DNA of 33,704 nt from a virus, in UHGV virus genome UHGV-0014912; one strand, written 5' to 3'. The translations under genes and the position numbers were made by a program. How positions within the stretch are numbered: position 1 is the first letter of the stretch; the number at the start of each line of letters is the position of its first letter. This document shows, in pieces, positions 301-25,877 of this stretch. The notes below the pieces were generated by a model. That model saw only the letters and a program-made list of their open reading frames with translations, was not told the DNA's origin and did no database searches.

Positions 301-2700
301 TTACATCTTGCGTCTGTTGCTGTCTTGAACAATAGCCGCGATGTTCTGTTGCTGACGTTTTAATTGTTCAGCAAACCAACGCTGATCAGTAACATTTCCA
401 TTTACGTGAATACTCGCGTCGATTTTTGTTGCTTCTCCTGTTTTGTTATTATCCAAGAATTCTTTTAAGTCGCCGTTTGTGCGTTCATCAACAACACGTT
501 CGCCACCATCAAGCAACCATGTCCCTTCTCTTGGCACTTCTGAAATACCATCGTGAGCCATACCAGTAATATTCACTGATTTCATCTGCAAGACTTGTCC
601 GATAACTCGCGCATAGCTTGAAGCAGCCATAGCGTAACCCATTGGACCAGGATATTTAGCCATTGCAGCAGTTGCGGATTCATAAGCGTTTAACATACCG
701 CTTGCGATTGCTGTACCCTTTTGAATAGCAAATACAGCTTGAGCAGCGTCTGAACTTTCACCTGCGATGCCAGCTATTATTGAACCCATACCAGAAGCAA
801 ACCCGTTATACATTTGGAGTTTCGTCTGAGTTTCCAAGAAAGTAATTTGTTTCGACTTCGCGGCATACGCTTGGTCAAGACGTGCTTTCTGTTGCAGGAA
901 CTGCTCGTGACTGATTAACTGACCATCATATAATTTCTGGTTCTGTTCGCGCATTTTCTGAAATTGTTCATCTAATGCGGCTTGTTGAATAGCCATTTGT
1001 TCTTCGTCAGTTGCAAAACCCAACGCACTAAGATTTTTGATATTAGCCATATTACCATTGCCGCTCGTTGCTTTAATAGCTTCAAGACGTGCCTGATGGT
1101 CTTGCTGTAATGCTTCAATCTGTGTGTTGTATTCTTGCTGACTGATTAACGACTGTGCTTTCTTCGCTTCAAGTTGTTCAAGCTGTTGCTGATATACAAC
1201 TTCAAGACTTGTCGTGATTGCTCCAATTTCTTCAGGACTCGTCATAAGAGTCTGTTTAAATTCTTCGTTAGATGTTTTAAACAGCATGTTTCGGCGTTTC
1301 TTAGCCTGTTCAGCGGAGATAATTCCTTTTTTCTCAAGTTCTGAGATGGTTTTAATAGCCTGATGAACTTGACTAACCTGATTTGAAATCGTTCGACCTT
1401 CTTGACTCAGAATTGCAGCATCAAGACTGGAAAGATTCTGTAACGCAGCCTCCCTGTCTTGCATCATCTTATCGTAGGCAGCTTTAGATTCTCTTGCGGC
1501 TTGCTCCTGTAAGCGTTGCTTTTCTTTAGCAGCGCGTTCTTGTTCTCTTGCTACTCTATCAGCTTCGCGTTTAGCGTTATCAGCTTCTTTTTTCGCTTCC
1601 TCAGCGGCTTTCTCATTACGCTGTTTCTGCAACTTCGCTCGTGTTATTTCGTCTTGCTTACGTTTTTCATAAGCTTTATCACCTTGAGCTTTGGTCTTTT
1701 TCAGAAAACGTTCTGTCGTATCAAGATAATCTTTTTGCAGTTTACGTTGACCTGCGCCAGAAGTCGGGTTAGCGTCTGCATAAGCATCAACAACTGAATC
1801 CGCCATCCAATTAGCTAACATCTTATCAGGACGTAAGCTGTCGATTTCAGTAAAGAAGTCGAGAATACTAGTAGCTGTCCATTCTTTATTCGCGATGTCA
1901 TAAAGATTATTCATCTTAGTGACTAACGGGTCCATAACGTTAACAGCTAAATTATCCAAGTTCACAGAAAGAGTTTTCATCTTTTCATCGAATTCTTGGT
2001 ATTCCCTTGCTGTTTCGTTTGTAATACTAGCTGATTGGTTATTGATAGCGTTTAATGCTTCTTGAGTTGAGCCGTATTTTTCAAGAACAGTAATCAAGTG
2101 AGAACCGTCAGACGCCATAGACTCCATTCCGTTAACGATTTCGGCTTGACTTGCACCAGCTTTTTTCAAGTCATAATAAGTCTGAACAAGTGCTTTAATA
2201 CCGCCTTCGGCGTCGTTAATATATTGAGTGTATCGCTCAAGACCAATACCCCATTTATCAAGGTCATCACTAATACCGCCTGCACCTTCTCTGAATGAAT
2301 CACCGAGATGGTCGAGAGTATCTTTGTTAAGATCTCCGAAACGGTCAATTTCAATTCCTGTAGCGCGAAATTCTTTTTGAAGCTGTTGCAGATATTCAAC
2401 TGAAAGTCCAGTTGACGTAGAGATCTGATTAAGTTCTCTTGTTTTTTCTAAAGCGGTATTAAGAACAGCTACACCTGCGCCTGCTGCCATTCCTGCGATC
2501 CCCAGAGCTTGCATACCTGAGGACATTCCTGCAATAGTTGATATTCCACTGTTGAGATTATTCAACGGTCCTGTCATATTACTAAAAAGCCCATTAGCAA
2601 TCGAATCGAGTTCGTTCAGTTTCTCCATAGACTTATCAATAGATTTTGAAAGGCCTTTGTTATCTCCGTTAATCTCAACGTCATAACGTGATTTAGCCAT
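301..2700 (-). CDS. Tail tape measure protein
   Basis: 799 aa; long K/E/A/Q-rich coiled-coil centre, Gly/Ala-rich hydrophobic C-terminal segments (GFASGMGSIIAGIAG...), directly downstream of a G/T-like chaperone pair. Confidence 0.6.
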   Translation of the reverse strand: MAKSRYDVEINGDNKGLSKSIDKSMEKLNELDSIANGLFSNMTGPLNNLNSGISTIAGMSSGMQALGIAGMAAGAGVAVLNTALEKTRELNQISTSTGLSVEYLQQLQKEFRATGIEIDRFGDLNKDTLDHLGDSFREGAGGISDDLDKWGIGLERYTQYINDAEGGIKALVQTYYDLKKAGASQAEIVNGMESMASDGSHLITVLEKYGSTQEALNAINNQSASITNETAREYQEFDEKMKTLSVNLDNLAVNVMDPLVTKMNNLYDIANKEWTATSILDFFTEIDSLRPDKMLANWMADSVVDAYADANPTSGAGQRKLQKDYLDTTERFLKKTKAQGDKAYEKRKQDEITRAKLQKQRNEKAAEEAKKEADNAKREADRVAREQERAAKEKQRLQEQAARESKAAYDKMMQDREAALQNLSSLDAAILSQEGRTISNQVSQVHQAIKTISELEKKGIISAEQAKKRRNMLFKTSNEEFKQTLMTSPEEIGAITTSLEVVYQQQLEQLEAKKAQSLISQQEYNTQIEALQQDHQARLEAIKATSGNGNMANIKNLSALGFATDEEQMAIQQAALDEQFQKMREQNQKLYDGQLISHEQFLQQKARLDQAYAAKSKQITFLETQTKLQMYNGFASGMGSIIAGIAGESSDAAQAVFAIQKGTAIASGMLNAYESATAAMAKYPGPMGYAMAASSYARVIGQVLQMKSVNITGMAHDGISEVPREGTWLLDGGERVVDERTNGDLKEFLDNNKTGEATKIDASIHVNGNVTDQRWFAEQLKRQQQNIAAIVQDSNRRKM

Positions 2701-3055
2701 TATTCACCTTTTTTGTTTTTCTCAGTTTAACTTTATCCAACAGAGCTGGGTCGAACATCGATTCAATAGCTTTCTTACGTTTAAGCTCCTGTTGTTCTTT
2801 CTCTTTTTCGATTTCTTCTTGAGACTTAAACACAGAATCTTTAATAAGCTGATGGTCTTTCATGTTCAACTTTTTTCTGTACTCTTTGGTCAGATTCGGG
2901 TTATTTGCTTCGATAGTGTGAATCAATCGAGCTTGATAGAAATCGTTATAGACAGGACTTTGTGGTTCAATAAACGAGTCGAAAAACCATAATTCGTAAT
3001 ACATCATTACGGACATCTGTTGAATTTCTTCGTTTGATAATCCGCGACGTAACAT
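2693..3055 (-). CDS. Tail assembly chaperone, T-like frameshift extension (probably expressed as a G-T fusion)
   Basis: Reading frame stays open upstream of its first ATG and overlaps the 3' end of the 3091..3399 ORF in the -1 frame; sits immediately upstream of the tape measure gene. Confidence 0.4.
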   Translation of the reverse strand: MLRRGLSNEEIQQMSVMMYYELWFFDSFIEPQSPVYNDFYQARLIHTIEANNPNLTKEYRKKLNMKDHQLIKDSVFKSQEEIEKEKEQQELKRKKAIESMFDPALLDKVKLRKTKKVNNG

Positions 3056-3090
3056 TGTTCGATACTGAAATGATTTTGCCCAGTTCTGCC

Positions 3091-3399
3091 TTAGTTCTTT
3101 TCCAGAACGTCTGAATCCTTAGTCAGAATACTAGCGTTTGAAACAGCGCTTGCGAGTTGTGAACGAACAGTCGTATAAAGTTTCTGAACTTGAGCGATTT
3201 CTTTAAAAACGCTTGTTCCGTCTTCGTGCTGAATGCAATTTAGAATCATTCGGTCGTTACGTTCTTCTGTGTTTTCATTTTTGAAATAGAATTCACCAAA
3301 CTCGGATACAGTCATCGGACGTGCATAGAATTTATAACCGTTGATTTCAACAGGTTCGCGTTTTGGTGATAGTGATGCTAACATTTCATCGAAATTCAT
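3091..3399 (-). CDS. Tail assembly chaperone (G-like)
   Basis: 102 aa ORF directly before the T-like ORF and tape measure gene; 28-nt -1 overlap containing GGAAAAG. Confidence 0.45.
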   Translation of the reverse strand: MNFDEMLASLSPKREPVEINGYKFYARPMTVSEFGEFYFKNENTEERNDRMILNCIQHEDGTSVFKEIAQVQKLYTTVRSQLASAVSNASILTKDSDVLEKN

Positions 3400-5295: not shown

Positions 5296-8200
5296 CTATA
5301 CTTTACTAATAAAGTAAACTGCTCTTGATGCTACCGCACGGTTCAACTCAGCCGTATATGTTAAGTCAACAGCTTGACCAGCTTCGATATAAGCGACACC
5401 ACCGTTTGAGCCGTTTAACGAACGGGATTCCGTGTAAACAACTTCCTGACCGTTTGATAATCTCAGCCACGCTTTACCACCGCCCCAACCAGTACCGCCT
5501 GAATATGTCCAACCTGAAATAGCAACGTTAGGAATAGCAATCATGCGTCTCCAGTTGACAGCAGGAAAATGAACTGTTCCCCACGGATCTATAAATCCCA
5601 TGTCAATAACGTCGCCTTCAATTCTGTCAGCGTATACAGTTCCTGTGAAATAACCTGAACCGCCTCTGATTTCTCCTGAGAAATAACCTGAGTCAGCTTG
5701 AATATTTCCTTTAACGTTAACGTTTTGGAAAGAAGCCCAACCGTCTTTTCTGATTGTCCAACCTTGAGTACCACCGGAAGAGAACCAGTTGTCAGAAGAT
5801 ATTTCATAAGCAATCTGAGCCGAACCGATCTGAGCATTACCAATTTTCGCTGATGTAATAGCACCGTTTTCAATCTTCGCGTTGTTAATAGCAGCATCGC
5901 GAATCTTTGCCGTATCAATTGAAGCGTTTGCAATCTTCGCATTACCGATTGAAGCATCACGAATCATAGCATCTTGGAGATAAGTCTTGTTATCTGCAAC
6001 CATGAACGGAGGAACAGCACCTTCAGGAGTGTTGTTATTCGTAATAGCGATTTTATCAGCGTTGAAAATAATGCTTGATGATTTCGAACCGTCAGCATTT
6101 TTATTAGCGAGCATACTGATACCAGCAACAACACCGTCGGCATTAGTCTGAACTGCCCATTTGCTGTTAATAGTTCCTGTCAGTTCGTCAACACTTGCTT
6201 TTGCTTCTGTTGAAACACTTGCAATTGCTGAGTCAGTTTCAGCTTTCAGTTGGCTAATTGCGCTTGCTGTTGCTTCTCTATCGTTAGCTTGAGTTTTTTC
6301 AACAGTCGTGATAGCAGCGTTTAATTTACCGTCAAACTCAGCCGATTGAATAGTAATAGCCTGATTGATAGCGCCATTCGTTCCATCAGTTATTTGAGTG
6401 TGTAACTCAGCGTTTTTGGTAATAATCGTCTGATTCAGTTCTGTTGTTACTTTTTGCTCCGACGCTATAACTTCTGTATCGGTATATTCCTTAGCAAGTT
6501 TCAAAGCGTCTTCAATAGCACCGTCAACGCGTTCGTTCAGGTCTAACAAGTCTTCTAATTGGTCTTTCATATCGTCGTTCCATGGAATATCCCATTTCAT
6601 ATCGATATAAGTCGCCTGTGACCAAGTAATCTGGTCTTGTCCGAAAACGTCATACCATGCTGCACGAACATAATATTGACCATCTTCTAACGGGAAGTTG
6701 TCTAAAAACGGACTTGAGCTTGAATAAACGTGAACAATTTCATTAAAGCTTTGGTCTTTCGCAATATGAACAATTGTGCCTTTGAAGTCAGGTACTTCAG
6801 GAATATTATCACGTGGGTCATTCCATGAACACATCAGCATTCCAGGACCATTCGAAGCTGTGAAACCTTGAATTGCAGGAGCTTGATTGTTCTTGACAGT
6901 AATAACACTCGGATCTGATTTCATACCAGCGTGACCGTATGCAGTAACAGAAACTTTCAGTTCGCGACTCAGACCATTACCCAAGTTCATATTAAAGTCG
7001 TATACAAAACCTAAATCTTTAGTCTTGTAAATTACAGGTCGTTGACCTTCGATTTTAATTTCGTAATACTGAAAAACTTCACCGAATGTCTGTAACGTGT
7101 CGTCAACATAGAATTTCTGTGCGCTCTGGTCGTCCCAGGCGAATTCAAATTGAGTCTTGTTAGTGGTGTACTGATCCTCAACCGCGTTCGTTAGGCGCAA
7201 TCCTGTAACGCTTGGTAAGTTATACGTAACATCAGGGTTAACGTTATTCACATATACCCATTCTGAACGATACACAACACCAGAAGCACAAACACGAATA
7301 TCAAATTTCTGATTAGGGTCAAGACTCATAATCAAGAAATAATCGCCTGATGTGAAACCTGCTTGAGTCCAAGAGTTCTGACCAGCAAGACTATACTGAA
7401 TATAATAACCTGCGCGGTTATAATCAGGTTCAGACGTCCATTGCACTTTCAAAGTTCTTCCTAAAGCGGTTTCAGCAACTGCTTTAACTGTCAGATTCTT
7501 CGGTGGAATAAGAACAGCTTTGTTAGGAATGTTACTTCCTGAGTTATCAGGGTCTTTCGCGTAGTCAAGATCGGTATAAACTTCTTCGATATATTCAGCA
7601 GCGGTAATAGTAACGATACCAGCAGCACCTTTTTCCATCGTGCGATCAACGTTAGTTACACGCCATAAGGAATCAGTCAGTTCCAGTTCTTCGAAATTAA
7701 CTCTGATAATATCCCAGACCTGAACGGTATAAGCATCAGCAGACGAAAAACTAATAACCTGTTGTAACAGTGATTTGTTTCGTTCTATTGAAGCAATTTT
7801 GTCCAACTGAGCTTTATCTTTAACGAATCTGTAACTAATATCTTTTGCGATAATACGTTTATCTTTTGCGATAGTTCCATCATTTGTTACGTCAGACGGA
7901 TAACGAAGAACTTGGTCAGAATAGTCAATCAAAGGATCTTGATATTTCACGTTCAGAGTGTTGTAGTAATTCTCTGTTCCACCATCGTTCAAGCTAACAG
8001 TTCCGGCGTTAATATTATCCTCGTTGAAATCATATTGAACAACACCAGGACCATCGATAACGCAAGTAACTAATCCGAAAGACTCTGTGATAATACCGTT
8101 AAAAGCACCTGCAATCTGAGTTAAGTTTTCTTTGAATGAACCATTCGGGTCAGTTGCACCGTTTGAAAACAGACTGTTCAGTTTTGCGTGTTCTGCACAT

Positions 8201-8985
8201 TGCTTGAAACTATCAAGATTGATTTTATCAAGTGGAATACCCAGACCGTAACGTTCGTTCGTTAGATAATCGACTGCTTGACTAGGACCATTGTTTGAAG
8301 GAGAGATGCCTCCTGTGTTCAGGTCAGTAATCAAACGTCCTCTAACGTCAACAGCTACTTGACTGTTAGGTTGCAGGATATCAGCTTGGTTTTCTAAGTC
8401 TTTGTTACGTTTACGCATAACGACACAAACAGAAGCGATACCATTACCAGTTGCAGAATCAGGCCAACCAGCTGGGTCATTTCCTAGATATTTCTGAGCA
8501 AGCGTGAAAACGTGACCGTATGGTTTACCAGTTGAGAATTCAACTTCAACGAAATTCTGATATTCAGCAGCGATAGAGCCTTTATCTAAAATGCCATCTC
8601 TGTAAGTTCCATCAAGTAAGATTTTCTGATTATCCATATACAGGTTTTTGAAGCTATCAACTTCACCTTCACAGATTGCAAAGACTTGCACCAGATAAGT
8701 CGTATCGACACCAACAGATTTCCAAACGTTAATAGTCCCTGTACGTTGTTCGCCGTAGATAATAGGAATTACGCTTGCAGGGTCAGACGTTGTTCCTAGT
8801 GTCGTTGCAGTGTCTGCGCTATTAAATCGAGGAACAGATTCTTTCATCGAATAGGACATTAATCCTGAAACAGCAGCAACAGCGACACCAATACCGATAG
8901 CAACAGCAAGAGCAGCACCAGCGGCATATGCCGCAGCAGCAGCGGAAGCACCCGCAATAATTGCACCAATAGCAGCAATAGCCAT
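5296..8985 (-). CDS. Tail tip / host-specificity protein (lambda J-like) with an I-like hydrophobic N-terminal segment
   Basis: 1229 aa; N-terminal region loosely resembles the start of lambda J; C-terminal tandem short repeats ([40 protein letters not shown]); N-terminal Ala/Gly-rich hydrophobic stretch. Confidence 0.55.
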
Positions 8986-9401
8986 TATTTTCTCCTGTTG
9001 AAAATTAATTCAAAATTAAAATCGTTAACGTTCACTAGTTTGTATTTGTTTTCGTGTTCAACCAATGCTTGATTATTGAAAACGATGGACGCAACGTAAT
9101 AGACACGGTTTTTATGTTTTTTCTTAATTAAGATAACCGAGCCAGTTTCTATCTTTTCTGATTTCGCAAGATGATTTTCACAAGCTTCGAGAACGTTGTT
9201 AAAACCAGTTAGCTCTTTGCAAATCTTGAGACCTTCGGGAATACTCTTGTATTTGTCTTTTAATTTGTCTGTGTATTCAGTAGCACAAACAAGGTCGATA
9301 TATTCAGCAACAAGGATATTACAGTCGTTTTGACCGAACTGATGTTCTTTGTTGATATATCGATTCAGTAATTTTGATAAGTCAGCTTGAAATTTAAACA
9401 T
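8985..9401 (-). CDS. Hypothetical tail-associated protein (possibly a K-like cysteine peptidase)
   Basis: 138 aa immediately upstream of and coupled to the J-like gene; Cys and His residues present ([11 protein letters not shown]) but no confident motif. Confidence 0.25.
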
Positions 9402-9414
9402 GTTTCACCTCTGA

Positions 9415-9424
9415 CTTTATTTAG
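9415..9424 (-). promoter_or_regulatory. CTAAATAAAG motif upstream of the 8985..9401 gene
   Basis: Exact 10-mer 17 nt upstream of the ATG, directly after the terminator of the preceding gene. Confidence 0.4.
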
Positions 9425-9426
9425 AG

Positions 9427-9452
9427 CCAAAAAAGGACTCATAAGGAGTCCT
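9427..9452 (-). terminator. Intrinsic terminator after the putative major tail gene
   Basis: Stem AGGACTC / GAGTCCT with loop ATAAG, preceded on the plus strand by an A-run (U-run on the minus RNA). Confidence 0.6.
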
Positions 9453-9467
9453 TCTTACTTCGTTCAA

Positions 9468-9947
9468 TTAAGCTTCTGGAGTAGTCGTATCGATAACGCC
9501 TGAAGCAACTGGACCACCGTCAACAGAAAGTGTCAGAGTCAGACCAGAAACTTCTGATTCTCCACCATTGTGAACAGCGCTTGACAAGAAACCGTTATAC
9601 ATTTTCGCAACGCCCAGATCTTTAGCAGCATCGACCCAATAAACGATTTTGAACTGACCACGTTTACCATCTTCCGCAAGCTTAATCAGAACATCATGAA
9701 CGCTTTCTGGAATATAGTTAACAGTCAAGTCGATATCAGGAACAGAACCACGACCAACAAGCTTACGAGAATACTTATGAGAGAAGTTCGGAGCTGTAAT
9801 AACTTCACGCTCAATACCAGTAGAAGGGAATGCACCAGTCTCTGGAATTTCAACGAATTTGTCGTTATTCAAGTCTGTGTTAGTGATATCAGAGTTATAG
9901 AACACACTGACGTAAGAGCCAGAGAAAATATCAAATTTATCAGCCAT
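9468..9947 (-). CDS. Putative major tail (tube-like) protein
   Basis: 159 aa; loose pattern resemblance to lambda V; TATAAATA element 30 nt upstream and a strong terminator downstream, consistent with a highly expressed structural gene. Confidence 0.35.
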   Translation of the reverse strand: MADKFDIFSGSYVSVFYNSDITNTDLNNDKFVEIPETGAFPSTGIEREVITAPNFSHKYSRKLVGRGSVPDIDLTVNYIPESVHDVLIKLAEDGKRGQFKIVYWVDAAKDLGVAKMYNGFLSSAVHNGGESEVSGLTLTLSVDGGPVASGVIDTTTPEA

Positions 9948-9976: not shown

Positions 9977-9984
9977 TATTTATA
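9977..9984 (-). promoter_or_regulatory. TATAAATA element (T4-late-promoter-like) upstream of the 9468..9947 gene
   Basis: Minus-strand TATAAATA about 30 nt upstream of the ATG. Confidence 0.3.
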
Positions 9985-18728: not shown

Positions 18729-18738
18729 CTTTATTTAG
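18729..18738 (-). promoter_or_regulatory. CTAAATAAAG motif overlapping the large terminase stop, upstream of the 18222..18704 gene
   Basis: Exact 10-mer 27 nt upstream of the ATG. Confidence 0.35.
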
Positions 18739-20630
18739 TTAAGCCATCCACGTTTCTTTTGATTGCTTCGTTGTATACGATGCACAGAACGAGCCTGAAC
18801 GCGTTTAGGTTCTTGCTTAACTGGTTCTATTAGCTCTTGCTCTAAGTCTTCAGGAATTTCGACCTCTGCTTTGGAAGCTAGCTTTCTCCACTCGTGAAAT
18901 TTGATTTTCTCTAGAACTTGCAGACGCGCACAATAACCGTAGTTAAAGCAGTCAAGACCTTCGTTTCTGACTCCACCTTGCTTAATAACCCATCTGACAG
19001 TATTACCAGAGCGTTTAAGTTCTTCCGACATTAGCTGTTCGGTATAATCATCTGGAACATCATCAGAGATTTCGACTCTTACAGGCGTATTCTGAACATT
19101 CTTTATGCTTCTGTTTAGTAGCTCGCGAACCATGTCTTTGCCTTTGTTAACTCCAATCATGAACAGTTCATAACCGCCTGTTTTCGTGATTTTCGTTGGC
19201 ACATATGGAGCATCAACTGATGAAGCACCCTTAATAGCGTGTAAGTTTCTCCATTGAGAACAGAAACGATATATTGTTTTTGTTGCTCGACCATTTGAAC
19301 TATCGACGTTCGCCCATGCAAGAGTTAATTTTCTTCCTGAGTCAGTTCTGAAAGTCGCTTTCAGATAAGCAAGAAGGTCTTTATAAGCAGGCGAGTCGAT
19401 AACTTCGGCGTTCATCGTCATGAAAGAGCGATGGTCGAGGATATAAACTGTTTTCTCGTTGTGACCCATCAGTGTTACTTCCAAACGGTCTTGCTGTTGG
19501 TCAACACCCGCAGTTAAAAACAATGTGTCATCTGGAATATTTCTAATACCGATATCAGTTTTTAATTCATCAAGCTTTGAGGACTCCAGTTCTTCGTTTA
19601 AATCGTCAAACGGAATACCGAGAACAGTGTTATAAAACGTTGACAAACTGAAAGTCTGAAAAGCGTCTTTGAAGTCTGCAACGACTGATTTAATACTGGA
19701 CATCGGACTGTACAAACGATTTATATGGAATCCTGCAACATTCGATTCTGGATTAGTCTGAATCCATTCACCTTGTTTTACCGCTCTTGCTCTTTCTCCT
19801 TCTGTGAAATGATGTTCACAAACAGGACATTGAATATAAGCACTGTCGGGATCTGGTAGAGATTTACCGTCTTGTTTCAACCATTCGAATTTAATATTTT
19901 CCCAAATAAGTTCATGCATATGTCCACATTCAGGACATGGCACATGATATTTGCGCTTATCGGAGTTTTCATACTGCGTGTTAATAGCACCGTATTTGCC
20001 AGTAGGAGTTGAACAGATAAAGACACGAGCATCCTCGCCGAAAGTCGTAGCACGTTGCTCGGCTATCATTATCGGGTTGCCTTCTTCGGTGTCTGTTTCT
20101 ACTGCGTCAACTTCGTCTAACAGGAGCAACGGTAATGTCTTGCCTCGTAAGTGAGAAGGGGAGTTCAAACTCATGAAGTACCAAAAGCCACCGTTGCGGA
20201 GCTGAATCTGTGATGTGTTATTAACTGCGTTTCTGTCGTTCTTATCCGTGACTATTCGTTGCATCTCTTCGGATGCGTCAATCATTGGCTTAATCTTGCC
20301 TGATAACCACTGAGTTGTTTCTTTTGCTGTTGACTGTAAAACACCTGCGTTGCCTGGTTCTGTCGCAGACTTATAGAACAACACACCGTTCAGAATCGTT
20401 GTCTTGCCGATCTGTGCAGACGTCATCAGAACGATTTTTTTCTTTCTCTCTTTTATTACATCTATCATCCCGCGCTGGAACTCGAATAATTTCATCGGTT
20501 GTCCTGAGTGCGGACCATCTGGGAATTTCAAGTTAGCTTCGACCCACTCTGATGGTGTGTAGTCCGGTGGTGGAAGCAAGAAACGTTTTGCACGTTTTAG
20601 AATCAATTCTAGTTTTTGTTTGTTTTTCAT
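18735..20630 (-). CDS. Terminase large subunit (lambda GpA family)
   Basis: 631 aa; Walker A-like LMTSAQIGKTT, Walker B-like LLLLDEVD, zinc-ribbon-like CPECGH...CPVCEH, C-terminal nuclease-like region; AGGTGA RBS. Confidence 0.85.
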   Translation of the reverse strand: MKNKQKLELILKRAKRFLLPPPDYTPSEWVEANLKFPDGPHSGQPMKLFEFQRGMIDVIKERKKKIVLMTSAQIGKTTILNGVLFYKSATEPGNAGVLQSTAKETTQWLSGKIKPMIDASEEMQRIVTDKNDRNAVNNTSQIQLRNGGFWYFMSLNSPSHLRGKTLPLLLLDEVDAVETDTEEGNPIMIAEQRATTFGEDARVFICSTPTGKYGAINTQYENSDKRKYHVPCPECGHMHELIWENIKFEWLKQDGKSLPDPDSAYIQCPVCEHHFTEGERARAVKQGEWIQTNPESNVAGFHINRLYSPMSSIKSVVADFKDAFQTFSLSTFYNTVLGIPFDDLNEELESSKLDELKTDIGIRNIPDDTLFLTAGVDQQQDRLEVTLMGHNEKTVYILDHRSFMTMNAEVIDSPAYKDLLAYLKATFRTDSGRKLTLAWANVDSSNGRATKTIYRFCSQWRNLHAIKGASSVDAPYVPTKITKTGGYELFMIGVNKGKDMVRELLNRSIKNVQNTPVRVEISDDVPDDYTEQLMSEELKRSGNTVRWVIKQGGVRNEGLDCFNYGYCARLQVLEKIKFHEWRKLASKAEVEIPEDLEQELIEPVKQEPKRVQARSVHRIQRSNQKKRGWLN

Positions 20631-20775: not shown

Positions 20776-21216
20776 ATGAAAAACGCATTAACTGTTGAAA
20801 ATAAAATTGCTTCTGAGTTAAACGCTGGTACTGAATTATCAGAACGTAAGCTTGCAGAGAAATTTGAAACAACTCGTTCCGTTGTTTGTCGTGTTAAAGC
20901 GAACATCGAGAAATACACAGTTGTTGAAGCTGTACAGGAAGAAAAACCTGAAGTTAAAAAACTTAATACAGCAGAAGTTATCGACACTGTAAAAGCTGAG
21001 GAGATTACTCACAAAGCTGTAGGACTCGATAATATTGAAAAGCTTCTCGCTAGTAAGTCAGCGAATAAAAAGCCCGCTGAAATTAGCTTGTTAATTTTTA
21101 AATCGGTAAAAGGAGATTTTGAGTTATTCAGTAAGCAAATGAAGGGAAAATCATCGCAGTATATTAAAGACCAATTTTTACGCTCTAAAAATAAACTTGA
21201 TAAGGATTCAAAATGA
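20776..21216 (+). CDS. Putative DNA-binding (HTH) protein, first gene of a three-gene coupled operon
   Basis: 146 aa; N-terminal HTH-like segment (TELSERKLAEKFETTRSVVCRVKAN); transcribed divergently from the large terminase gene. Confidence 0.35.
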   Translation: MKNALTVENKIASELNAGTELSERKLAEKFETTRSVVCRVKANIEKYTVVEAVQEEKPEVKKLNTAEVIDTVKAEEITHKAVGLDNIEKLLASKSANKKPAEISLLIFKSVKGDFELFSKQMKGKSSQYIKDQFLRSKNKLDKDSK

Positions 21217-21882: not shown

Positions 21883-22091
21883 AGTTTTCCTTCATTTAAT
21901 TTTCTGCAACTGTCAATATCGAGTTTAGCTGTTTCTGGATTATACTCTGTGAGATTACAGATAACACCTTGCTGTTTGAATGTTTCAACGTTGATATTAC
22001 TGTTAATACATCCTATCAGAGAAAAAGCTCCGACAATCGTCAGAGCCATGATAATAGGTTTAAAAAGTTGTTTTGCTTGTTCGTTATTCAT
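21879..22091 (-). CDS. Small outer-membrane-type lipoprotein (candidate superinfection-exclusion, Cor/Llp-like)
   Basis: 70 aa; signal peptide with lipobox LIGC (PIIMALTIVGAFSLIGC); mature part about 45 aa; TAATG-coupled to the upstream HEG. Confidence 0.4.
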   Translation of the reverse strand: MNNEQAKQLFKPIIMALTIVGAFSLIGCINSNINVETFKQQGVICNLTEYNPETAKLDIDSCRKLNEGKL

Positions 22092-22699
22092 TACGCTGCC
22101 TCTCTTAAACGACGTGCTTGTTGTGCTAGTTTCATTTTCTCGATAGTTTCAGCAGAACGAGTTCCGATAACACGACCTTTATTTGCTTTGCCGATTTTCT
22201 TTTTTGTTTCTTCTGACTGAACAGAACCGGTTTTTGCTTTTGAGATTTTTCTACGTGTCTCTAGTGAAACAACATGACCAGTCATGCTATCAGAGATTTT
22301 CTTGTTTCTTTCTTTAATTTGTTGTTCTGTCATGGATTTAAAAACGTTGCCTCCCGCTTGTCCTGATGAAATATTTAATAAGTTAGCTTGCTGTTGTCTT
22401 GCGTGTTTAATGCAAGCAGTTTCGAAGTCATACGCTTCCTGTTCGTCTGTGAAAGTCTTTAGAACAACTTTAAACACAACGTCTGTCGGTTTCATTTCTG
22501 CTAGTTTCTCACGAACTAAACGACCGCTGCCTATATAAAGCATGTCAGGCTGTTCATTGTAAGATTGTTTGCCGTAATAAACGTAACTGACATCATTGAT
22601 GCGAAAAACGGTTTTATAAACTGCGTAAGCTTTGATTTCAGCGTTACGGATATCAGAACGGGTTTTGTAAGTTACGTTGTTAATAGTGCGCTTGTGCAT
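22091..22699 (-). CDS. GIY-YIG homing endonuclease with NUMOD3 repeats (Seg / I-TevI-like)
   Basis: 202 aa; N-terminal GIY-YIG-like AVYKTVFRINDVSYVYYGKQ; three C-terminal NUMOD3-like repeats (GHVVSLETRRKISKAKTG, SVQSEETKKKIGKANKG, RVIGTRSAETIEKMKLAQ). Confidence 0.7.
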   Translation of the reverse strand: MHKRTINNVTYKTRSDIRNAEIKAYAVYKTVFRINDVSYVYYGKQSYNEQPDMLYIGSGRLVREKLAEMKPTDVVFKVVLKTFTDEQEAYDFETACIKHARQQQANLLNISSGQAGGNVFKSMTEQQIKERNKKISDSMTGHVVSLETRRKISKAKTGSVQSEETKKKIGKANKGRVIGTRSAETIEKMKLAQQARRLREAA

Positions 22700-23117
22700 T
22701 TGAGTTTCCTTAAAGTTAAAAATAAAAGTGAAAGAGATTTACATTCAGTTGTTTTTCTGAATTACACTTGTATTTAGTAACTAGGTTTATCTATAACCTG
22801 ATAAAAACAGGGAATAGCACTAAATGATCAAGGAACACTCCTATTAAATTAACGTTTGTTAATAAATCCTAGGACGCATCAGGTTGAAACCAGATAGCAA
22901 TATGAACAGGAGTAACATCAAGGTCGGTTAATGCAGCAGGATAGATCCTAGAAAGAACCTGATAACAGCTTGAACATAACGAGAAAGGGCGCTAGCCCGT
23001 CGAAAGCTCGCTTGCGAGATTGAGACTAACTAACGAATTCAGATTTAATTAGCGATCATTAAGTTTATTAGATATCCAGTGATCAGTATAATGCAGTTAA
23101 CCAGTAATCAATATTAT

Positions 23118-23337
23118 CCAGATCTGAAAACAAGATAGGCGCAGCCGCGCGAAGCGCTAATAATATTATCTAGAAAAAACATTATTAACTTAGTCAAACT
23201 TGATTATCTGGATTACTGAGTGATCATAACAATGTTGACTTAGTGTTATCTGTCGCGCTTACGCGCTAATGTTATTAATTGGGGCTAACGCCCTCTCGTC
23301 GAGCAAGCTCTCCTCGCTATCTGGTTTTCAGATCTGG
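23118..23337. repeat. 21-bp imperfect inverted repeat pair (23118..23138 and 23317..23337) bracketing a ~180 bp segment with iteron-like TATC(C/T)(A/T)G copies
   Basis: CCAGATCTGAAAACAAGATAG versus CTATCTGGTTTTCAGATCTGG (two mismatches); six TATCCAG / TATCTGG / TATCTAG / TATCTGT motifs between 23073 and 23324. Confidence 0.5.
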
Positions 23338-23429
23338 TTCTTTCCTTGTTTTTAAAACCTTCCATATCATCTTTATCCAATTGTTCTTATAGGGAGATTT
23401 TTCTCAGTATCCATGCGCTTCTCCGACTT

Positions 23430-23471
23430 GCATCGATGCGCTATCGATGCGTTTTGCTGTACATCGATGCA
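23430..23471. promoter_or_regulatory. Three tandem operator-like palindromes (GCATCGATGC core)
   Basis: GCATCGATGC at 23430..23439 (perfect 10-bp palindrome) with related copies ending at 23450 and 23470, about 90-130 bp upstream of the 23562 gene. Confidence 0.45.
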
Positions 23472-23529
23472 CTTTGTTCCGATTGTTTTTGATCATTTTG
23501 TGCTGAGATAAGTTTACGACTTCTCTCCT

Positions 23530-23537
23530 TATAAATA
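23530..23537 (+). promoter_or_regulatory. TATAAATA element (T4-late-promoter-like) upstream of the 23562..24008 gene
   Basis: Exact TATAAATA 25 nt upstream of the ATG, followed by AAGGAG RBS. Confidence 0.35.
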
Positions 23538-23561
23538 TTCTTTGAACAAAGGAGAATCCTA

Positions 23562-24008
23562 ATGAGCTACTATTTTTGTAACGTCGGTGAAGTTTTCGAC
23601 GGAGAAATTTCTATTCTTCGAAAGCGTGATATTTTCACAAACACGATTATCGGAGATGTATCAACCCAAAAAGAAAAAATGAAAAAATGTTCACCTAGTA
23701 TTCAGAGACATTTAGAAAAAAGTCAGAATCTTGATATCGGTTGCGTCTATGTTTTAAAGCTTGAGAACGAAAAATGGTATGTTGGATATACTAAAAACAT
23801 ATTAGGAAGAATTAAAGAACATGCTATGGGTATTGGTGCTGAATGGACAAAAACTAACAAACCTATTCAACTTGTTAATTTTTTCATCGGAGATCATAAA
23901 ATTGAGAGAAGATTTACTGAAGAATTAATGATTAAGTTCGGCTGGCAAAATGTTAGAGGTGCAAGATGGACTGCTAACGAGATTCTTTGTCCTATGATGT
24001 TCAGATAA
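23562..24008 (+). CDS. GIY-YIG nuclease-domain protein with a ~60 aa N-terminal extension
   Basis: 148 aa; GCVYVLKLENEKWYVGYTKNILGRIKEH fits the GIY-(~10)-YVG pattern of small GIY-YIG proteins. Confidence 0.55.
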   Translation: MSYYFCNVGEVFDGEISILRKRDIFTNTIIGDVSTQKEKMKKCSPSIQRHLEKSQNLDIGCVYVLKLENEKWYVGYTKNILGRIKEHAMGIGAEWTKTNKPIQLVNFFIGDHKIERRFTEELMIKFGWQNVRGARWTANEILCPMMFR

Positions 24009-24182
24009 TTTTTCGAGAGTTTGTTTACTATCCCGGTGATGGGTATAAATACTAGTATAAGTTAAAGATTCGCACTGATTGAGAGATTTCTTCCTCGTTT
24101 GTTTACTCTCAGTCATTACGATTATAAAATAACTATGAAAGCAAGTTCATTTAGAAAATCCAAATAAAATTCCTTAAAGTTT

Positions 24183-24208
24183 GAAGCACTCTTCGGAGTG
24201 CTCTTTTT
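24183..24208 (+). terminator. Strong intrinsic terminator
   Basis: AGCACTC-TTCG-GAGTGCT stem-loop followed by CTTTTTTC. Confidence 0.7.
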
Positions 24209-24394
24209 TCAACATTACAAAAAAGGCAACCCATGAAATTTATTCCAAATAAGTTCGAAATTGAATCTCGATTAGATGCTGGTGAAACTTTTCAGCAGAT
24301 TGCAGAATCAAAGAAAATGAATAAAGCAACGCTGTATAACGCTTGCAAAAAACGCAACATCAGAACGACTAAACAGAAATAAAAGGAAAACAAA

Positions 24395-25312
24395 ATGAAA
24401 TTTTCAGTATTTGATAACTTAAACGGAACCACTAACGTTAGCTTGAATAAAAAAATTGTTAAGACTAACGAAATGACCAACAACAGAAACAAACTGAAAG
24501 CATTTGTCGGAAGTTTTACCGATATTCATCGCAACGTTAGAGCAAAAATGCTAACTAAAATTGAAAATGCTTTGACTGTAAAAGATATGCGTAACTTTGA
24601 AATCGGTATGTCCGAACTGAATGATAAACCTGCTATCGTTGCTTATACAACTGATAAAGCTGTTATCGTTTGTTCAGAAGCAAATCGTTGGAAAGCTCTT
24701 GGTTCAGACCTGACTTTAGTTCATGCGAAAGAATCCCAAAACTTTGTTCAGCAATATATTGGTGATTTTATCGAGATTAAAGAAGAAATTGAATTTCCGA
24801 CTGAACAGAAAGTTGACGTTATTTCTAACGAGTTGGAAGAATTGAGAAAAGAAATTGAGAAAATGAAAAAAGAAAAGGCAGAACATAAAAAACTTATCTC
24901 TGCCTATGCGAAAAATTATAAGGGTGATGAATTATCTTTTGATGAAGACCTGACGATTATCAAACATCAGAACAGTATTAAATCAGAAGTTGGCGCTTCC
25001 GAAATTTCTAACGAATCAACTGTATTTAGTGTAACAGAAACAGCAGAAAATTTAAACGACGACCTGATCGTTTCTATCGATCAATCAAACAAGGAAAATA
25101 AAATGCCTTTATATGATTATTCCTGCGAATGCGGAAACTATTTCGAAAAAACAAGAAAAATCTCTGAACGTTCTAGCGCTGAATGTCCTGAATGCCATAA
25201 AGAAGCAAAACAGCAACTGACAGCACCAGCCGGAATTCAAAACGGTTATTACGAACAAGGCAGAATGTTCATTAACAGAAACAAACAAACGTTTAAAACT
25301 GCTACACGATAA
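24395..25312 (+). CDS. Coiled-coil protein with a C-terminal FmdB-type zinc-ribbon domain
   Basis: 305 aa; C-terminal MPLYDYSCECGNYFEKTRKISERSSAECPECHK (CxC...CxxC); internal AAGGAAA RBS before that Met suggests possible separate expression of the zinc-ribbon part. Confidence 0.4.
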   Translation: MKFSVFDNLNGTTNVSLNKKIVKTNEMTNNRNKLKAFVGSFTDIHRNVRAKMLTKIENALTVKDMRNFEIGMSELNDKPAIVAYTTDKAVIVCSEANRWKALGSDLTLVHAKESQNFVQQYIGDFIEIKEEIEFPTEQKVDVISNELEELRKEIEKMKKEKAEHKKLISAYAKNYKGDELSFDEDLTIIKHQNSIKSEVGASEISNESTVFSVTETAENLNDDLIVSIDQSNKENKMPLYDYSCECGNYFEKTRKISERSSAECPECHKEAKQQLTAPAGIQNGYYEQGRMFINRNKQTFKTATR

Positions 25313-25330
25313 AGGAGCATCGCGCTCCTT
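25312..25330. terminator. Bidirectional terminator between convergent genes
   Basis: GGAGC-ATCGC-GCTCC stem-loop flanked by AAA and TTAATTAATTT. Confidence 0.45.
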
Positions 25331-25877
25331 AATTAATTTCTATCATGTCTTGTGATTGTTCAGATTCTTTTTCGTCTTCTGATTCGTCCTGTTCGTTCGG
25401 ATCTTCGTTTAGTTCCTGTTCGAACAGTTCAACACCGTTTAGAGTATCGTCGATAATTCTTTTCAGTGTTTCTTTCACCGTCTGAACATCAGAAGCTGAT
25501 TCCAAAATTTCGATAGCATGTTTATTCGGTATTAATCGCATAACAGATTTTAAGTCAGCACAAAAACGGTTCAACTCAGATTGAACATATTCAACTGGAA
25601 TTAATTGCTCCGATTTTTCTTGCGCTGTGTATTGAGCCAAGTCTGCTTTTGCTTTCTGCTCGCGGAGTTTTTCTTTCTCCATTTCATCGCGAACGGACAT
25701 ATTACGCATCGGGTTAATTTTGTTCTCAATTATCCAACGAGTGCCTTCGTCTTCTGGAATACCAGAGGGATTATCTGAATACGGAAGTCCTTCTGCACGC
25801 CAGCTCTTGATAGCGTTCAGGGTATAACCATAACGACGCGCCATATCAGTCATTGAAATATATGTTTTTCTTGCCAT
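25329..25877 (-). CDS. Putative terminase small subunit (lambda Nu1-like winged HTH)
   Basis: 182 aa (lambda Nu1 is 181 aa); N-terminal block SMTDMARRYGYTLNAIKSWRAEGLPY resembles Nu1 QLADIFGASIRTIQNWQEQGMPV; acidic C-terminus; a MerR-like regulator is the alternative. Confidence 0.45.
   Translation of the reverse strand: MARKTYISMTDMARRYGYTLNAIKSWRAEGLPYSDNPSGIPEDEGTRWIIENKINPMRNMSVRDEMEKEKLREQKAKADLAQYTAQEKSEQLIPVEYVQSELNRFCADLKSVMRLIPNKHAIEILESASDVQTVKETLKRIIDDTLNGVELFEQELNEDPNEQDESEDEKESEQSQDMIEIN

Follow-up and report, generated by a model that had tools for sequence, protein, structure and literature searches.

A cargo slot and a predicted antisense small RNA behind a GIY-YIG nuclease gene in an Enterobacteriaceae prophage family

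What is a long non-coding tail doing behind a small nuclease gene? The question arises in virus genome UHGV-0014912, of which we analysed one stretch of 33,704 nucleotides (nt), hereafter the window. A GIY-YIG nuclease gene on its plus strand is followed by non-coding DNA from 24009 to 24184 (176 nt; an earlier note, made from the letters alone, had counted ~175), which ends at a strong intrinsic terminator. That note left two options, a small RNA (sRNA) or a regulatory 3' untranslated region (UTR). Comparison with related prophages leads us to favour, with rather more confidence than doubt, a two-part answer in which the GIY-YIG gene is cargo inserted into the prophage backbone and the tail a part of that backbone, where a promoter, an RNA of ~70 nt and a terminator would make a trans-acting antisense sRNA against the translation-initiation region of a neighbouring NUMOD3 gene. 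Coordinates of the features are collected in Table 1.

A cargo slot in the prophage backbone

The window is an AT-rich prophage belonging to an Enterobacteriaceae prophage family. Its serine-recombinase integrase gene (30417..31922) adjoins a host ABC-F gene, its DNA is also found within contigs of up to 401 kb, and one source record labels the GIY-YIG protein 'Escherichia coli'. The minus strand codes for a GpA-type large terminase, a portal protein and a protease-capsid fusion; the closest terminase, from Escherichia phage DCP80, is only 51% identical, and a DNA-level search of INPHARED returned no close phage relatives of the window. Related prophages occur in Escherichia, Citrobacter, Enterobacter and Serratia (organism names as given in the source records). 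They include three E. coli relatives, PSS-15 (L005), L3Cip3 (L006) and 2021CK-01361 (L007), with more lineages from IMG/VR and metagenome contigs. L057, a relative of the L053 type, was reached via a protein search, and no L053-type lineage with more upstream sequence was found by DNA pattern or in the E. coli and phage collections. One candidate, L045 (Melioribacteraceae), was discarded as a chance pattern match inside coding DNA.

The three E. coli relatives have the same flanking genes as the window and no GIY-YIG open reading frame (ORF). Homology between L007 and the window covers 23045-23472 and resumes at 24005, with ~14 nt standing in for ~530 bp. The GIY-YIG gene is found in one lineage only, its cassette is absent from at least eight related lineages, and the GC content of the cassette is 33%, compared with 39% for the window. 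The segment 24010..24232 is kept without the ORF in the E. coli relatives and in the IMG/VR and metagenome lineages, and the tail of these gene-less relatives retains both TTTGTTTAC copies, the TATAAATA and TATAAAATA boxes, and the hairpin. Since the whole tail is kept where the gene is missing, our data do not support reading it as the 3' UTR of the GIY-YIG gene.

Gene-less relatives have a single promoter-like unit (P1, see below), to which the DNA on either side of the ORF can be aligned; a bare ribosome-binding site (RBS) and ORF are thus set between two P1 copies. The slot is not restricted to GIY-YIG genes. In the Citrobacter lineage L059, whose NUMOD3 neighbour is 96% identical to that of the window, the left flank is near-identical through 23529, after which the cargos diverge; its slot holds a different 222-aa ORF (896..1564 in window orientation; 2458..3126 of the locus, minus strand). 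This ORF has no Pfam or PHROG match; only with hhalign does homology emerge, between its N-terminal ~105 residues and the nuclease half of the NUMOD3 endonuclease-like family (92%, E 5e-7). The alignments make the division between cargo and backbone plain and, as far as sequence comparison goes, the GIY-YIG ORF with its Shine-Dalgarno (SD) sequence and TATAAATA box (~23530..24005) is a lineage-specific and, it appears, swappable cargo cassette.

The earlier note had also taken a triplet of ATCGATGC repeats upstream of the gene for its operator. This idea does not hold, as the array is kept in L006, L007, L027, L043, L057 and L062, none of which has the GIY-YIG gene, and backbone sequence lies between the triplet and the ORF. 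The window contains four ATCGATGC matches, both strands counted, against 1.2 expected. Pairing of the first two copies as a terminator hairpin was considered and rejected, because L005 and L044 carry a direct, non-palindromic GCGATGC variant from which no hairpin can form. The array is thus a group of DNA sites in the backbone rather than something specific to GIY-YIG.

The cargo protein itself is an ordinary member of the GIY-YIG superfamily. Its gene has an SD sequence, AGGAG (23550..23554), 7 nt 5' of the ATG, and residues 60-108 match the Pfam GIY-YIG profile (PF01541) at 32 bits (cut-off 22.6). An exhaustive HMMER scan with the core (residues ~58-145) found 4394 relatives at E<=1e-3, none of which exceeded 45% identity outside the protein's own cluster. 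The catalytic residues Y63, Y73, R83, H87, E115 and N130 all fall in invariant or nearly invariant alignment columns, so that an inactive domain remnant, an option raised by the earlier note, is not supported. The closest solved sequences are the UPF0213 proteins BH0048 (PDB 1zg2, profile E 2e-10) and EF2693 (1ywl). In the AlphaFold (AF2) model, the core has a predicted confidence (pLDDT) of ~95 and an alpha/beta fold with a three-stranded sheet (strands 61-67, 71-77 and 101-109), and Foldseek matched it to phage and giant-virus GIY-YIG models at a root-mean-square deviation of ~1 Å over 85-90 residues, as well as to I-TevI and UPF0213. Taken together, these comparisons suggest a small and probably active nuclease from the UPF0213/viral GIY-YIG clade.

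The N-terminal extension (~59 aa) has, as previously remarked, no recognisable motif, with no match in Pfam, NCBIfam or PHROG. The accompanying claim that the core is normally a stand-alone protein of ~90 aa, which would make an extension unusual, is not true of this clade: among 149 representative relatives, just 23 measure 120 aa or less, the domain starts at residue 40 or beyond in 42, and 49 carry it in tandem. The extension looks idiosyncratic. It is not conserved, only one relative aligns to it, and that weakly, and its residues 1-36 are modelled at pLDDT below 50. Relative to UPF0213/YhbQ-like small GIY-YIG proteins and the viral clade, the window protein has the same domain and catalytic residues; compared with the UPF0213/YhbQ-like proteins, it adds the non-conserved 59 aa and a clade-typical C-terminal GW-NVRG motif. 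No NUMOD, IENR1, helix-turn-helix (HTH) or other DNA-binding module was found in it with Pfam, NCBIfam and PHROG.

These properties bear on a choice between two kinds of gene: a free-standing, mobile one for a homing endonuclease, whose product would cut the empty slot of related phages, and a host-benefit 'moron' or defence gene. The free-standing GIY-YIG homing endonucleases of T-even phages (Seg proteins, I-TevI) combine a GIY-YIG core with an intergenic location and sporadic occurrence among syntenic relatives. The window gene likewise occurs sporadically, at a single intergenic site among syntenic genomes, and has a minimal footprint between duplicated flanks; its catalytic residues are intact, and the other known occupant of the slot, in L059, is nuclease-like at its N terminus. 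However, the window protein lacks the C-terminal DNA-binding modules (NUMOD, IENR1, HTH) of Seg proteins and I-TevI, residues 1-36 are unmodelled, its nearest relatives with a solved structure belong to the uncharacterised UPF0213 proteins, and defence-type cargo is encoded nearby (a TIR/PDC-S35 protein here, retron Ec67 in L007). The neighbour at 22091..22699 does have a NUMOD3 module, but is fixed in all lineages rather than sporadic. We regard homing as a real possibility, though one that we would tend to doubt.

Phage morons and promoter-flanked cassettes, such as the PeSL cassettes of T4-type phages, offer another comparison, as their repeated promoter-containing flanks could mediate exchange. 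The window cassette resembles them in being a single ORF between backbone genes, in its repeated flanks with promoter-containing sequence, and in the different cargos found in one slot. Unlike them, it brings no terminator and relies on the next one in the backbone, and its TATAAATA box lacks a properly spaced -35 element.

Promoter units, terminator and a predicted small RNA

Three features that the earlier note had recognised in the tail were confirmed: a terminator, a TATAAATA box at 24044..24051, and a 14-nt direct repeat, which is exact and lies at 24019..24032 and 24097..24110, 1-2 nt from the approximate positions (24017 and 24098) first reported. The repeat, GTTTGTTTACTNTC, corresponds to GTTTGTTTACT[A/C]TC at 24019 and 24097. 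A repeat as good was found in 39 of 3000 (1.3%) first-order Markov simulations of the 224-nt tail; by itself it is only suggestive, and it becomes convincing through the conservation of both copies in relatives. The two copies are the -35 regions of two tandem, paralogous promoter units (TTTGTTTAC ... TATAAA(A)TA ... CTATG), whose -10 regions are the TATAAATA and TATAAAAT boxes. Other TATAAATA boxes occur at 23530, just 5' of the ORF, and at 9977 on the minus strand. With three in the window against 1.65 expected, the box is not enriched, which leaves a T4-late-type promoter signal unsupported.

The second unit, P2, has the form TTTACT-17-TAAAAT, scoring 9/12 in a promoter scan, with a spacer inside the 16-18 nt range. 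All ten lineages measured have TTTAC(T/G)-17-TA(A/T)A(A/T)T with a spacer of exactly 17 nt, and the -10 variants (TAAAAT, TATATT and TAAATT) all retain T1, A2 and T6; L059, L061 and L062 also fit the pattern, by eye or by regular expression. Mean pairwise identity is 0.95 in the -35 block and 0.83 in the -10 element, compared with 0.64 in the spacer. We therefore read the conservation of this geometry as established, and P2 has all the appearance of a canonical sigma-70 promoter. The first unit, P1, is also kept in relatives, as TATAAATA, ACTAAATA and TATAAACA variants, with 14-16 nt from TTTAC to TATAAA.

A wider role for the -35 motif as a genome-wide regulator site was rejected, with 19 matches to TTTGTTTAC at no more than one mismatch and 19 expected. 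A third exact TTTGTTTAC lies at 27606..27614 (plus strand), in the gap between the YuaX-like and lysozyme genes, without a -10 box, and the same gap holds, at 27525..27550 on the minus strand, one more AAGGAAACTCGAAAATG string, which resembles an RBS and leads into an ORF of just 7 codons. These motifs may be decayed copies of those in the tail.

The terminator is conserved in form rather than sequence. Relatives show it in six sequence types, in which direct counting gave 41 paired stem cells out of 42 and compensatory changes on both sides of five of the seven pairs; the hairpin always comes with a tetraloop and a U-tract. It is predicted to end the GIY-YIG mRNA as well as transcripts from P1 and P2. 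In the Serratia-type loci L056 and L060, the small HTH ORF is preceded by two tandem RNA-like units. Both contain a TTCAT...ATTCC block and have separate hairpins (GAAUACUC-GCAA-GGGUAUUC, then GCGCUUC-CGCA-GAGGCGC with U7), which suggests that duplication of the module can occur.

Between P2 and the terminator, the predicted RNA measures 63-73 nt in relatives, its presumed 5' end being set by the position of the -10 element. Rfam 15 gave no match at gathering score in the window and none at E<=1 in 22650..24260, no tRNA or tmRNA was found, and no ORF in the tail is conserved on either strand. The coding candidates that we rejected were a 10-codon plus-strand ORF at 24135 (M-stop, or no ATG, in relatives), a 63-aa minus-strand ORF at 23925..24116 that overlaps the cargo gene and has no counterpart, and a minus-strand mini-ORF after AAGGAA-N7-ATG of variable length (2-8 codons). 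The 5' stem-loop of the RNA was likewise rejected as a conserved feature: it forms in most lineages from differing sequences and is absent in L005 and L044. The options posed at the outset can thus be separated, as the comparative evidence (P2, the ~70-nt segment and the conserved terminator) supports an sRNA and does not support a 3' UTR of the GIY-YIG gene. We consider it likely that the sRNA is made.

Downstream of the terminator, a small operon starts after only 23 nt and must therefore be transcribed by read-through. At least three different, unrelated first ORFs follow the terminator across lineages, which indicates that the module is not simply the leader of one gene. In the window, the first ORF (24233..24382, plus strand; 49 aa) has a minimal helix-turn-helix look by eye and no family match, and L056, L057 and L060 have small ORFs comparable in size and sequence behind the module.

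Table 1 Features of the cargo slot, the RNA module and its predicted target in the window.
Feature	Position	Strand	Description
Predicted target: NUMOD3 translation-initiation region	22685..22720	-	AACUUUAAGGAAACUCAAAUG; top of 105 ORF start regions by duplex energy with the RNA linker
ATCGATGC array	23430..23473	.	Three direct repeats (C/T)ATCGATGC(G/A) at 23432, 23443 and 23463, spaced 11 and 20 nt; degenerate fourth at 23408
Backbone left of slot	23473..23529	+	Includes -35 part of left P1 copy, GTTTAC 23512..23517
Cargo cassette	23530..24005	+	TATAAATA box 23530..23537, SD AGGAG, GIY-YIG ORF
GIY-YIG nuclease gene	23562..24008	+	148 aa; variable N-terminal extension 1-59 and UPF0213/viral-clade GIY-YIG core 60-145
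P1 unit, right copy	24019..24051	+	Repeat copy 1 GTTTGTTTACTATC with -35-like TTTACT, plus TATAAATA; paralog of P2
P2 promoter (predicted)	24097..24130	+	Repeat copy 2 GTTTGTTTACTCTC, -35 TTTACT 24102..24107, 17-nt spacer, -10 TAAAAT 24125..24130
Predicted ~73-nt small RNA	24137..24209	+	Weak 5' stem, single-stranded A/U-rich linker, terminator hairpin with U-tail
Segment antisense to the initiation region	24145..24183	+	GTTCATTTA (anti-AUG) ... AAAATTCCTTAAAGTTTG (anti-SD and upstream)
Intrinsic terminator	24185..24209	+	7-bp stem 24185..24202, AGCACUC-UUCG-GAGUGCU, then C-U6; -10.1 kcal/mol
Downstream operon	24233..25312	+	49-aa putative HTH protein; 305-aa coiled-coil and FmdB zinc-ribbon protein

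Complementarity to the NUMOD3 gene start

The candidate target is a NUMOD3/GIY-YIG-like, homing-endonuclease-like gene of 202 aa (22091..22699, minus strand), 1.4 kb from the RNA module and on the opposite strand. It is fixed at the same position in every lineage, with 59-63% identity to the window copy, which is unusual for a selfish endonuclease.

A 12-mer in the linker of the predicted RNA (24170..24181, TTCCTTAAAGTT) recurs letter for letter on its own strand at 22706..22717, where it forms the antisense of the NUMOD3 SD region, and such exact same-strand identity to the antisense of the initiation region extends over 11-16 nt in the window, L006, L019, L027 and L032. A whole-window RNAduplex scan was swamped by self-antisense and by loose A/U-rich duplexes, and a ranking restricted to initiation regions was used instead. 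In this ranking, the NUMOD3 initiation region formed the best duplex with the linker in five of six gene-containing loci (the window, L005, L006, L027 and L044).

The complementarity co-varies among four types of initiation region, each paired with its own RNA. In L057, where the NUMOD3 protein is 47% identical and the initiation region is of another type (AAAGGAAUUUUUAAAUGAAC), the RNA (GUUCAUUCAAAAAUUCCUCUUU) is complementary from the SD sequence through codon 2; the duplex reaches -18.7 kcal/mol, against -6.3 to -8.6 for foreign initiation regions, and ranks first of 31. L005, L044, L051 and L061 share a one-base-shorter version at both sites. RNAs of this shorter type gave energies of -14.0/-14.3 with their own initiation region and -8.5 to -11.4 with others when a 30-nt linker was used; with the full RNA body the corresponding values were -14.8/-19.0 and -9.0 to -15.7, ranges that overlap. 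The fourth type, in L060, has an RNA match of 7 + 9 nt. Pairwise identity is 0.89 in the near-invariant linker block, compared with just 59-63% between the NUMOD3 proteins and the window copy.

The origin of the block can be traced. On the minus strand it reads AAGGAA-N7-ATGAAC, like the start of a gene, and its homology ends at codon 2. The RNA of L006 and L007 matches the initiation region of the L053/L057-type NUMOD3 gene at 19 of 19 positions, pointing to derivation from an endonuclease gene start, and by its sequence the block looks clearly to have arisen in this way.

On the reading that we favour, the GIY-YIG cassette would occupy the slot between the two P1 copies of the prophage backbone, and P2 would start a ~70-nt RNA ending at the strong intrinsic terminator. 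The single-stranded part of this RNA would pair with the region from the SD sequence to the start codon of the NUMOD3 mRNA and block its translation. Transcripts that read through the terminator would express the small downstream operon, and the GIY-YIG mRNA of the window lineage would carry the RNA sequence at its own 3' end. The co-variation of the complementarity is firm; that the RNA acts by pairing with the NUMOD3 SD sequence and AUG we would put at even chances.

Several observations weigh against this reading. The NUMOD3 initiation region ranked only fourth in L019; the window's own duplex spans no more than 12 bp and, at -14 to -17 kcal/mol, falls short of those in L006 or L027; the Serratia locus L056 matches its own initiation region weakly; and L007 retains the module though its NUMOD3 gene is gone (this prophage is disrupted by an insertion sequence). 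The lineages share ancestry and are not independent samples. P1, given its non-canonical and variable spacing, is doubtful as a promoter, and the sRNA, its 5' end and its termination efficiency are predictions from sequence.

The main rival holds that the module is only a promoter, leader and terminator (an attenuator or insulator) for the downstream operon, and that the similarity to the initiation region is a functionless relic of an old gene-start duplication. The 23 nt between terminator and operon leave no room for another promoter, so that read-through is needed; the minus strand of the block is gene-start-like and wholly identical, over 19 nt, to the L053/L057-type NUMOD3 start; and L007 keeps the module without a NUMOD3 gene. 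A relic should decay, however, and the block retains an identity of 0.89, against 0.64-0.68 for the spacer and the 5' part. It also changes together with the initiation region across the four types, its homology is limited to the ribosome-binding window and stops at codon 2, and no alternative antiterminator pairing is visible. We consider the relic explanation unlikely, if less so than the two that follow.

Alternatively, the two similar blocks might be DNA operators of one protein with lineage-specific specificity, for example the small putative HTH protein encoded downstream. Both blocks lie in regulatory regions in equal orientation, co-variation is typical of operator/repressor pairs too, and in most lineages the next ORF after the module is small and putatively encodes an HTH protein. 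But the shared part is exactly the SD sequence, spacer and start codon, which is sensible at the RNA level; the register moves along the initiation region (-20 to the SD sequence in L006, the SD sequence to +6 in L057), unlike a fixed protein site; and there is no dyad symmetry. Such a pair of operators seems very unlikely to us. The view that these 176 nt evolved together with the GIY-YIG gene, as a regulatory 3' UTR serving it, is hardly credible: the GIY-YIG mRNA has no other terminator here and must run through the tail to 24209, but the tail is complete in every gene-less relative examined and stands behind a different ORF in L059.

Neighbouring elements, known systems and implications

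Between the NUMOD3 gene and the slot lies a non-coding block of ~730 nt (22700..23429; ~860 nt up to the ORF), which is 69-75% identical in relatives and unannotated there. It contains eight GATC sites against 3.9 +/- 1.9 expected (9.3 per kb, compared with 2.1 in the window) and is rich in TGATCA; it also has palindromic CAGATCTG sites of lineage-varying orientation and many short GC hairpins. The block 22700..23429 has no Rfam match and, because orientation changes, looks like a DNA-level element (a packaging site or an origin) rather than a structured RNA. The NUMOD3 gene sits between this block and the terminase genes. HNH proteins of cos phages have a packaging-associated role, and we speculate that the NUMOD3 gene has been domesticated, perhaps to a similar end.

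The arrangement of the terminase genes is itself noteworthy. The small subunit (25329..25877, minus strand; phrog_57, E 1e-20) is ~4.7 kb from the large subunit (18735..20630, minus strand), and an opposite-strand operon, the cargo slot and the long non-coding block lie between them. Just upstream of the large terminase, on the opposite strand, is a small ORF (20776..21216, plus strand) that has no PHROG or NCBIfam match in the window; its counterparts in L005 (1611..2039) and L006 (4175..4576) are annotated in RefSeq as GntR-family, making it a candidate regulator of the region. The window also encodes defence-type cargo, a TIR-domain protein (26214..27409, minus strand; PADLOC PDC-S35, E 9e-71) with a YuaX-like partner, and the equivalent region of L007 holds another such cargo, a retron Ec67 reverse transcriptase (7740..9509).

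The proposed RNA has partial parallels among phage antisense immunity RNAs. P22 sar, P1/P7 c4 and P4 CI are ~70-nt RNAs whose single-stranded segments pair with the RBS or leader of a phage gene, acting in cis or within the same transcript or operon. The window RNA would resemble them in its length of ~70 nt and in carrying a single-stranded copy of a phage gene's ribosome-binding sequence. It would differ in the distance of 0.9-1.5 kb between RNA gene and target, which lie on opposite strands, in its partial pairing (12-20 nt), and in being directed at an endonuclease-like gene rather than an antirepressor. For I-TevI, translation of the endonuclease is known to be tightly controlled at the RBS.

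A second parallel concerns the arrangement of promoter and terminator. StxS, like the lambda 6S RNA, is a short transcript from the late promoter PR' that ends at tR' and is a regulatory sRNA in lysogens (PMC7547250). The window module has the same order, a promoter and then immediately a strong terminator, before genes that need read-through. Unlike PR'-tR', no Q/qut-type antitermination element or antiterminator gene was identified here; unlike StxS, the downstream operon consists of two small genes rather than a late region, and the proposed target is a phage initiation region instead of host mRNAs.

A more ambitious version of the antisense reading would make the RNA an 'anti-homing' regulator, one of an sRNA family kept as antisense of homing-endonuclease initiation regions. 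It would silence the resident NUMOD3 gene in lysogens and possibly the endonucleases of superinfecting relatives, since RNA of the L006/L007 type matches the L053/L057-type initiation region at 19 of 19 positions; the slot would then be a landing site for exchanged GIY-YIG-type nucleases. We offer this as a conjecture, and an improbable one.

For annotation, the locus carries the lesson that what looks like a long 3' UTR can be a separate, gene-sized feature. For the prophage family, it presents a slot where nuclease genes swap between near-identical flanks. We know of no earlier example of a trans-encoded antisense RNA dedicated to the RBS of a homing-endonuclease-like gene. If the RNA is real, it would be the first of these and would represent an undescribed sRNA family, with no Rfam match, in poorly studied prophages of Escherichia, Citrobacter, Enterobacter and Serratia; it would also suggest a simple way in which a temperate phage can silence a nuclease of this kind.

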